Of a stretch of DNA of 64,000 bases, positions 58,023-64,000 are shown in pieces. The stretch comes from a virus (taxonomy: Duplodnaviria; Caudoviricetes). The position numbers and the translations under genes were made by a program. How positions within the stretch are numbered: the first letter of the stretch is position 1; each line of letters begins with the position of its first letter. The notes under the pieces are model-generated. The model saw only the letters and a list, made by a program, of their open reading frames with translations. It did not search any database and was not told where the DNA came from. Where the stretch lies: IMG/VR virus record IMGVR_UViG_3300029288_001928, positions 1 to 64,000 of that record. One strand, given 5' to 3'.

Positions 58023-58050
58023 GTTATAAATAATTTAGAGGTATTAACTT

Positions 58051-63094: not shown

Positions 63095-63478
63095 GTGAGG
63101 ATATATAATAATACTATGACAGATAGATCAAATTGTAAATTCGCATTAATAAAAAATCTAGATTCTACTACTGTAGTAAATTCTGATGGATCTACTATTA
63201 AAAAAACAAAAAAAGTAATACAAAAAATTGACGAAAATGGCCAACCTATGTTTACTATCCAAGAAGTAACTGTAAAAAAAGGCTGTAAGTGTAAAGGTAA
63301 TCAAACTACCGAAATAGTACAAAAAAAAGTCCCTGTTACAGAAGAAATATGGGTCGAAGAAGTCGTATCACATCAACAAGTGTCTGTAGAATCAGGACTT
63401 ATAATGTGTAAACTATACGGAAAAGTAAAACGAACCTTCTGCGATAAATGCTCTACCTTCAAACCTAAACCATCTTAA
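63095..63478 (+). CDS. Small Cys-containing hypothetical protein
   Basis: GCKCK and C..C.KC motifs; probable start ATG at 63116. Confidence 0.55.
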   Translation: MRIYNNTMTDRSNCKFALIKNLDSTTVVNSDGSTIKKTKKVIQKIDENGQPMFTIQEVTVKKGCKCKGNQTTEIVQKKVPVTEEIWVEEVVSHQQVSVESGLIMCKLYGKVKRTFCDKCSTFKPKPS

Positions 63479-63588
63479 AAAAAGTAGTTGACTTTTAATT
63501 TCGACCTGTTATAATTGATCCCAGACAAAAGAAAAACTTTTCGGAAACGAAAAGAACGAGTATAAATAAAACCTAGAGGGAACAAAAA

Positions 63589-63708
63589 ATGACTTGCTTA
63601 TCTCTGAATACAAAGTATAATAAGCAAAATATGGCACCAAAATATTGCCATATTACATCCCTCTCCGTCGATTCATTTAGTGATCGTATTGGAGGGATCC
63701 AGAGGTAA
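63589..63708 (+). CDS. 39-aa leader peptide of tRNA operon 2 (putative attenuator)
   Basis: RBS AGAGGGA; MTCLSLNTKYNKQNMAPKYCHITSLSVDSFSDRIGGIQR*; the last codons are complementary to the terminator 5' arm. Confidence 0.65.
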   Translation: MTCLSLNTKYNKQNMAPKYCHITSLSVDSFSDRIGGIQR

Positions 63709-63730
63709 GTAGGAATACATAGAGATTCCG

Positions 63731-63761
63731 AAAGCCTCTGGGAAACCCCAGAGGCTTTTTT
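63731..63761 (+). terminator. Intrinsic terminator (attenuator) upstream of tRNA operon 2
   Basis: AAAGCCTCTGGG-AAAC-CCCAGAGGCTTTTTT. Confidence 0.88.
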
Positions 63762-63847
63762 AATGGTCTTTTACAATTATATATCGTGGAATATAATAAA
63801 GGTTAAACCCCTCTTGGATAGGGTAAAATCTATCCAAGAGATTTTTT

Positions 63848-63942
63848 GGAAACGAGTTAGATATCGGTTCGCTAAAACGATTTGCTAAATCGTGTGTCGT
63901 TCAAAAAAGATCGGCATGGGAGTTCGACTCTCCCCGTTTCCG
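63848..63942 (+). tRNA. tRNA-Ser(GCT)
   Basis: GGAAACG/CGTTTCC acceptor; ACGAT-TTGCTAA-ATCGT; long variable arm; GGGAG-TTCGACT-CTCCC; G73. Confidence 0.9.
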
Positions 63943-63949
63943 CTTATAT

Positions 63950-64000
63950 GGAGAGTGATCTATACGGCGGTCTGTAGAACCGTTGCTTTTAATATGTATA
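63950..64000 (+). tRNA. Partial tRNA-Tyr(GTA)-like sequence with a shortened D arm, truncated by the window end
   Basis: GGAGAGT-GA-TCTATAC-G-GCGGT-CTGTAGA-ACCGT. Confidence 0.45.

Follow-up and report, generated by a model that had tools for sequence, protein, structure and literature searches.

The trpL, hisL, pheL, thrL, and ilvL leaders of enterobacterial amino-acid operons have in common a promoter and a short translated open reading frame (ORF) with its stop codon at the antiterminator strand. Their antiterminator and terminator hairpins exclude each other and are close in energy, and the terminator ends in a U-run. Such classical attenuators use codon runs because single codons give weak sensitivity. 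This sensitivity has been modeled (PMC1183508). The phage leader described here has the same parts but differs from the trpL type: it lacks a single-codon run and carries only a loose cluster of Asn, Lys, and Tyr codons; its downstream genes are tRNAs, separated from it by a promoter and a second terminator; and in most of our models the untranslated leader is predicted to read through rather than terminate.

In two other systems, bmrB-bmrCD of Bacillus subtilis (PMC4191407) and mef/mel of Streptococcus pneumoniae (PMC4335068), the leader ORF is likewise of ordinary composition and lacks a codon run. According to these reports, any slowing of the leader ribosome favors read-through, making each a general sensor of translation speed, as the phage leader would be. 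They differ from it in that antibiotics are their signal and bacterial efflux or resistance genes their targets, whereas the presumed targets of the phage leader are tRNA genes. T-box riboswitches also pair a terminator with an antiterminator and tie output to tRNA status, but they bind uncharged tRNA through a specifier loop and T-box bulge and control synthetase or amino-acid genes; the phage leader has an ORF instead. No T-box match came up in Rfam searches of the 351-nt region (E ≤ 10) or of 10 kb (E ≤ 1), and the leader families that scored did so below their gathering thresholds (Phe_leader 20.1 against 55 bits, His_leader 15.4 against 49, PyrR 19.9 against 54).

Phage tRNAs are known to counter tRNA-cleaving defenses, with tRNA-Tyr of T5 and SP15 acting against retron Eco7 and tRNA-Lys against PrrC (PMC11555353). 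Tyr, Lys, and Asn tRNAs, kinds that such nucleases attack, are likewise encoded by the block behind the leader; the described anti-defense tRNAs differ in being made from a strong constitutive promoter, with no inducible control described (PMC11555353). In a full-text literature search, no report of phage tRNA genes controlled by attenuation was found. To our knowledge, control by ribosome speed has so far been documented only for amino-acid, synthetase, and resistance genes. A working switch at this locus would mean that phages regulate tRNA genes by reading ribosome speed, and it would provide a testable link between translation stress, including tRNA-cleaving defenses, and phage tRNA supply.

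Genome Context and Relatives of the Locus

The source record is a 133,443-nt uncultured virus, ∼62% complete, with a G+C content of 30%; its first 64 kb (64,000 nt) is the stretch analyzed here and is referred to as the window. Tail genes include a Phage_TTP_2-type tube and neighbors that resemble T4 gp25 and gp6 in relatives. In the reference phage collection the only match of the tail-tube protein was to a Vibrio phage, at 29%, and neither the DNA of the locus nor the protein encoded upstream of it had a match there.

A sigma-70-like early-promoter family is present in ∼40 copies genome-wide and has a conserved −35 region; T-rich and A-rich flanks surround the −35, the spacer is 16–17 nt, the −10 is consensus, and many copies lie 10–20 nt ahead of a ribosome-binding site. 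The T4-type late motif TATAAATA occurs 47 times in the genome, and 24 of these copies (51%) lie 9–60 nt 5′ of the ATG of ORFs that encode 100 aa or more, compared with 8% of random positions.

The sole true homologue of the locus from a metagenome scan was a 1,454-nt contig (L006) with flanking genes ∼82–87% identical and the same order throughout: upstream gene, early promoter (P1), late-promoter motif (PL), Shine-Dalgarno sequence (SD), ORF, terminator T1, promoter P2, terminator T2, tRNA-Ser, and tRNA-Tyr. The 127-aa protein encoded upstream has only four relatives among 5.8 billion proteins. A 50%-identical relative (L003–L005) continues straight on into tail and baseplate genes, with neither leader nor tRNAs at this point, which argues that the leader travels with the tRNA island. 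A landfill sequencing run contains a second strain over 63229–63727, which appears to be an L006-type variant, and a lagoon-metagenome run covers part of 63665–63846; no RNA run was listed as carrying the sequence. Protein scans of IMG/VR returned nothing, nor did scans with DNA patterns of the terminator, of P2, and of the antiterminator. Two sets of candidates were set aside: T-arm pattern matches, which were unrelated tRNA-Leu genes only, and two matches from an 18-mer scan of prokaryote genomes, which lacked flanking similarity and are about what chance would give.

The Leader and Its Reading Frame

The preliminary description had reported an early promoter from 63488, a late motif from 63561, a ribosome-binding site, and a 39-codon ORF, and all were found where it had placed them:

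63488–63515, plus strand: P1, early sigma-70-type promoter, member of the phage promoter family, 11/12 match with TG before the −10 (extended −10)
63537–63554, plus strand: 5′-UTR hairpin of the early transcript, from folding
63561–63568, plus strand: PL, T4-type late-promoter motif TATAAATA, of the kind enriched 5′ of long ORFs; conserved in L006
63575–63580, plus strand: SD of the mini-ORF, 8 nt before the ATG; core conserved in L006
63589–63708, plus strand: leader ORF, 39 codons, an open reading frame in both homologues

In L006 both hexamers of P1 are kept and the spacer varies. The 5′-UTR hairpin is probably dispensable; we dropped it as a functional part, as it is lost in L006, where this region is 51% identical. 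The PL copy lies 28 nt before the leader ATG, and the SD motif also serves other late genes, such as those whose late-promoter motifs lie at 58025 and 49583. In its SD, spacing, and ATG, the start of the leader ORF resembles those of this phage's real late genes, and this match, together with its conservation, favors a translated leader of the attenuator type.

The ORF had been read as a codon-sampling device on account of its amino-acid diversity and rare codons. Both counts hold: 18 of the 20 amino-acid types are present, with a run of 13 different residues, and the codon adaptation index is 0.44. This diversity is ordinary (P 0.06–0.19), however, as 18 types in 39 residues are reached by 8.6% of windows cut from real proteins, by 5.7% of small ORFs, and by 19% of random ORFs that have the local base composition; the run of 13 occurs in 1.6–3.7% of control ORFs (P 0.02–0.04, marginal). 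The adaptation index equals the mean of spurious small ORFs, and codon usage places the ORF within the lowest 1.7% of 39-codon windows taken from real genes. Since each rare codon overlaps a predicted helix arm and the diversity is ordinary, RNA structure explains the codon choice better than codon sampling does. An exhaustive search of 1.84 billion protein representatives found no homologue of the leader peptide. A type I toxin was considered and dropped because the peptide is hydrophilic.

Alternative RNA Structures

Folding reproduced the two hairpins within the ORF and the strong terminator noted previously, along with further elements:

63595–63604, plus strand: segment b, possible anti-antiterminator strand, pairing with 63702–63711 in a 10-bp helix predicted in both homologues
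63628–63654, plus strand: hairpin A inside the ORF, from folding; stem conserved and loop changed in L006
63657–63698, plus strand: hairpin B inside the ORF, from folding; outer helix rebuilt in L006, where both arms carry changes and deletions
63698–63711, plus strand: segment d2, antiterminator 5′ strand, overlapping the last codons and the stop codon; 100% conserved in L006
63712–63729, plus strand: small 5-bp hairpin enclosed by the antiterminator, from folding; 100% conserved in L006
63731–63761, plus strand: T1, intrinsic terminator with arms 63734–63742 and 63747–63755, then six U; −21 to −23 kcal/mol

The T1 hairpin folds with 13 bp. The stop-proximal pairing proposed earlier, 63698–63706 with 63734–63742, forms in folds of both the window and L006 once the 3′ arm of T1 is withheld. 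At −19.3 kcal/mol, against −21.3 for T1, this antiterminator has an energy similar to that of the terminator with which it is mutually exclusive, and its formation in both homologues at so close an energy favors an attenuator. None of the other terminator-like hairpins, 14 of which were found genome-wide with this one included, has so strong a complementarity, and 1.75% of dinucleotide shuffles reach it (P = 0.0175); its 7-mer core has three plus-strand copies in 133 kb, two of them at the leader locus. The complementarity is thus unlikely to be due to chance, with the proviso that the P value is inflated by selection, the locus having been picked originally for that complementarity.

The ORF window ranks within the 0.4% most structured 120-nt windows, 63721–63840 is the single most structured window of that length, and the fold of the whole leader transcript is very stable (z = −7.8). 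Paralogous switches elsewhere in the genome were sought and none was found. Two other pairings were dropped: that of the SD region with the 5′ arm of T1, which arises only in the early transcript of the window and is weakened in L006, and a role for the 3′ arm of T1 or of hairpin B as an antiterminator of T2, for which the 5–6-bp G/C complementarity holds too little information.

Conservation Between the Two Homologues

Identity to L006 varies sharply along the locus:

Upstream gene: 82%, with third codon positions, the least conserved, at 76%
Early 5′ UTR: 51%, hairpin lost
PL and SD: 94%
ORF: 87%
63698–63745 (48 nt): 100%
T1: 89%, with the top pair changed from G-C to A-U, one compensatory pair
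T2: 57%

The 48-nt block from 63698 to 63745 is thus invariant in a relative whose neutral sites are ∼76% identical. T2 was free to covary whereas the region of T1 and the strand preceding it are frozen, as expected if these bases serve two alternative partners. Both antiterminator strands are invariant in this one relative.

Within the ORF, L006 carries 3-nt and 1-nt deletions that remodel hairpin B with its pairing retained; the frame nevertheless remains open for 39 codons, with the stop 4 nt further downstream. The 12 substitutions fall 3, 5, and 4 times at codon positions 1, 2, and 3, without third-position bias, and two are synonymous. This pattern gives no hint of selection on the peptide sequence and, together with a 39-codon frame that outlasts a frameshifting deletion, favors the attenuator. 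The peptide is 29/39 identical to that of L006, similar to the neighboring protein, and on this ground it may be a real small protein.

Modeled Effect of Ribosome Position

We placed a 30-nt ribosome mask at each codon and computed equilibrium pairing probabilities for transcripts ending just before the 3′ arm of T1. In three of the four transcript models, namely the late transcript of the window and both L006 transcripts, the predicted antiterminator probability was near 1 for A-site codons 2–33, dropping to near 0 at codon 34 and beyond, through to the stop. In the fourth, the early transcript of the window, a competing 10–12-bp helix (63595–63606 with 63700–63711) limited antitermination to A-site codons 2–11 and 32–33; this was the only model in which segment b beat the antiterminator. 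According to the model, the conserved logic would be that T1 takes effect only with a ribosome already at the end of the ORF, with untranslated RNA mostly reading through. The equilibrium calculation thus predicts a switch that is on by default.

Leader codons 7–14 read Asn-Thr-Lys-Tyr-Asn-Lys-Gln-Asn. Six of the eight are cognate to the Asn(GUU), Lys(CUU), and Tyr(GUA) tRNAs encoded downstream, with a local P of 0.003–0.013 against control ORFs for an 8-codon window chosen post hoc. The total count is unenriched (P = 0.23), and one of the two AAG codons is AAA in L006. The match of codons 7–14 to the content of the tRNA block is a weak one.

The Region Between T1 and the tRNA Genes

Two further elements occupy the gap between T1 and the first tRNA gene:

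63770–63797, plus strand: P2, candidate independent sigma-70-type promoter, 11/12 match, 16-nt spacer
63811–63847, plus strand: T2, second terminator-like hairpin (12 bp) with U-run, directly before tRNA-Ser

A site like P2 would arise by chance in the 86-nt gap with a probability of 0.003–0.01, and 63765–63800, which includes it, is 100% identical in L006. The T2 hairpin ends seven bases before tRNA-Ser; in L006 it is kept as a 13-bp hairpin through many compensatory changes, at −22.2 kcal/mol compared with −18.8 in the window. Because this covarying terminator-like hairpin adjoins tRNA-Ser, read-through of T1 alone would not deliver the tRNAs. At 63770–63847 a promoter candidate is followed within ∼45 nt by a terminator-like hairpin directly before a tRNA; such a P2–T2 pair may represent a terminator that leaks, a hairpin protecting the 5′ end, or a site of processive antitermination.

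An attenuator requires that the genes it controls depend on read-through, and the predicted promoter P2 behind T1 would free the tRNAs from that dependence. The preliminary description had named an independent promoter behind the terminator as evidence against its proposal, and P2, judged by sequence, would be such a promoter.

The tRNA Block and Array

As described previously, tRNA genes follow the leader. The first, tRNA-Ser(GCU), starts at 63848, and the array extends to 72536. ARAGORN called 27 tRNA genes, three near 57.5 kb and 24 within 63848–72536 (genome positions). The first two behind T1 are:

63848–63943, plus strand: tRNA-Ser(GCU), first of the block, from ARAGORN
63949–64036 (the window ends at 64000), plus strand: tRNA-Tyr(GUA) with a long variable arm, from a weak Rfam tRNA-clan match and an anticodon loop read by eye in the window and in L006

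The tRNA-Tyr(GUA) gene was missed by ARAGORN at default settings and is also present in L006. The block behind T1 comprises six genes, tRNA-Ser(GCU), tRNA-Tyr(GUA), two tRNA-like genes, tRNA-Asn(GUU), and tRNA-Lys(CUU), and is followed by a convergent TnpB-like gene. At least four further promoters, matching 11/12 or 12/12, are present, at genome positions 57462, 65874, 68712, and 69576, from which it follows that the array is not one operon; elsewhere, tRNA blocks lack a leader and are served by promoters of their own.

Proposed Mechanism and Alternatives

We tentatively propose, with somewhat less than even confidence, that 63488–63761 is a translation-coupled leader-peptide attenuator that adds read-through into one six-gene tRNA block. 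Transcription would begin at P1 or PL and the 39-codon ORF would be translated. A lead ribosome in step with RNA polymerase would occupy the last ∼7 codons or the stop while 63734–63755 is made, covering d2, so that the arms of T1 would pair and transcription would stop there. With a late ribosome, d2 would instead pair with the 5′ arm of T1 (about −19 kcal/mol), allowing read-through toward the tRNA block. The likeliest site of delay would be the Asn/Lys/Tyr-rich codons 7–14, read by tRNAs encoded just behind. Read-through of T1 would merely supplement transcription from P2 and would still have to pass T2. Here the sequence elements, the competing pairings with their energies, and conservation in one relative are shown; we infer translation of the ORF, control of termination by the position of the ribosome, and the identity of the decisive codons.

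As far as sequence comparison can tell, a ribosome-mediated attenuator accounts for the anatomy and its conservation better than a terminator alone would. Beyond the translation signals, the tolerated frameshift, and the antiterminator fold, the attenuator is favored by the rank, shuffle P value, and local clustering of the complementarity, by the outcome of the mask model in three of four transcripts, and by the complete identity of 63698–63745 while T2, a plain hairpin, drifted to 57%. The compensatory pair in T1, the highly structured ORF window, the six of eight cognate codons at 7–14, and the absence of the leader where the tRNA island is absent point the same way. The proposal is weakened by P2, unlikely by chance and perfectly conserved between T1 and the tRNAs; by T2; by reliance on one relative with invariant antiterminator strands; by a codon match that is local and post hoc; by the 29/39 peptide identity; and by the predicted default-on behavior. 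The ribosome-mediated architecture seen in the preliminary description is present and conserved, whereas its codon-sampling design and its gating of the whole array were not supported. The leader would be at most a partial control on one tRNA block, not an all-tRNA alarm for the array.

A strong rival, to which we give a lower probability, is a plain cassette: a small gene for a 39-aa late protein, or a structured sRNA, would be expressed from P1 and PL up to a constitutive T1, which would also insulate tRNAs driven from P2, and the arm copy upstream of T1 would play no part in regulation. The position of P2 directly behind T1 suits it well, as do the leaderless tRNA blocks with promoters of their own and the peptide identity; an sRNA would also explain the stable transcript fold and conservation at the nucleotide level, and the inflated P value of the complementarity counts for it as well. 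A late protein, however, sits poorly with codon usage like that of spurious ORFs, a tolerated frameshift, only two synonymous changes among ∼12, and the lack of a homologous peptide, and no Rfam family was found for an RNA. A simple terminator, moreover, leaves unexplained both the invariant 48-nt block, T2 having drifted freely, and the placement of the antiterminator strand exactly on the stop codon. Should the switch fail, the locus would show how an attenuator can be mimicked by no more than a small ORF and a terminator with one of its arms copied nearby, and the lesson would be to check for promoters behind a terminator before inferring a gate.

A stronger form of the attenuator, in which the leader is a block-specific sensor and slow decoding of Asn, Lys, and Tyr at codons 7–14 raises transcription of the phage Tyr, Lys, and Asn tRNAs, seems to us doubtful. 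If true, it would constitute an inducible tRNA supply or anti-defense loop and would extend trp-type attenuation to phage tRNA genes; these three tRNAs are species attacked by known anticodon nucleases. The anti-defense purpose given to the leader in the preliminary description is pure conjecture.

Less probable still is a factor-dependent RNA switch, in which a three-hairpin domain closed by 63595–63604 and 63702–63711 binds a protein, an RNA, or a small ligand, the ORF being incidental. The closing helix would withdraw the antiterminator strand, as OFF riboswitches or PyrR-type attenuators do. Its bases are shared with that strand, it is predicted in both homologues, the layout resembles leaders built of an aptamer plus an expression platform, and the sub-threshold Rfam scores hint weakly at the PyrR and Phe-leader models. 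Yet hairpin loops and junctions differ between the homologues, the closing helix wins in just one of four transcript models, a canonical and conserved late-gene translation start lies inside the putative aptamer, and no Rfam family reached threshold.

The weakest reading is that of the preliminary description, that the leader samples nearly all tRNAs and that any loss, through anticodon nucleases or starvation, stalls the ribosome and turns on the whole array as an anti-defense circuit: it draws on the 18 amino-acid types, on the anti-defense role of phage tRNAs (PMC11555353), and on the modeled release of the antiterminator by a ribosome held at almost any of codons 2–33, but is highly improbable given the ordinary diversity, rare codons attributable to helix arms, the weak sensitivity that single codons confer in classical attenuators, the intervening P2 and T2, and an array of which six genes precede the TnpB-like gene and the rest has its own promoters.

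Other Observations in the tRNA Region

Of the two tRNA-like genes in the block, that at genome positions 64043–64120 has a normal acceptor stem and T arm and an enlarged anticodon loop, in which ARAGORN under relaxed settings reads a four-base anticodon. The other, at 64126–64207, folds into a cloverleaf whose acceptor stem has 7 bp and whose anticodon loop is of the Lys UUU type, and its CCA is encoded; its T loop is non-canonical and its D loop large, and it was called by neither ARAGORN nor Rfam. It may be a variant tRNA-Lys.

The TnpB-like ORF (421 aa, 64396–65661, minus strand), assigned by eye, has a zinc-finger motif and lies inside the tRNA array, convergent with the block; a 49-aa ORF upstream of it looks, from its translation, like a ribbon-helix-helix protein. 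Sub-threshold Rfam matches to YrlA (Y RNA-like) fall among the tRNAs at 69261–69403 (49.6 bits) and 70278–70342 (28.5 bits), against a threshold of 69. Just beyond the 3′ end of the array, on the minus strand at 72609–72627, is a 19-nt near-copy (18/19) of the P2 −10 region, which may be a convergent promoter.
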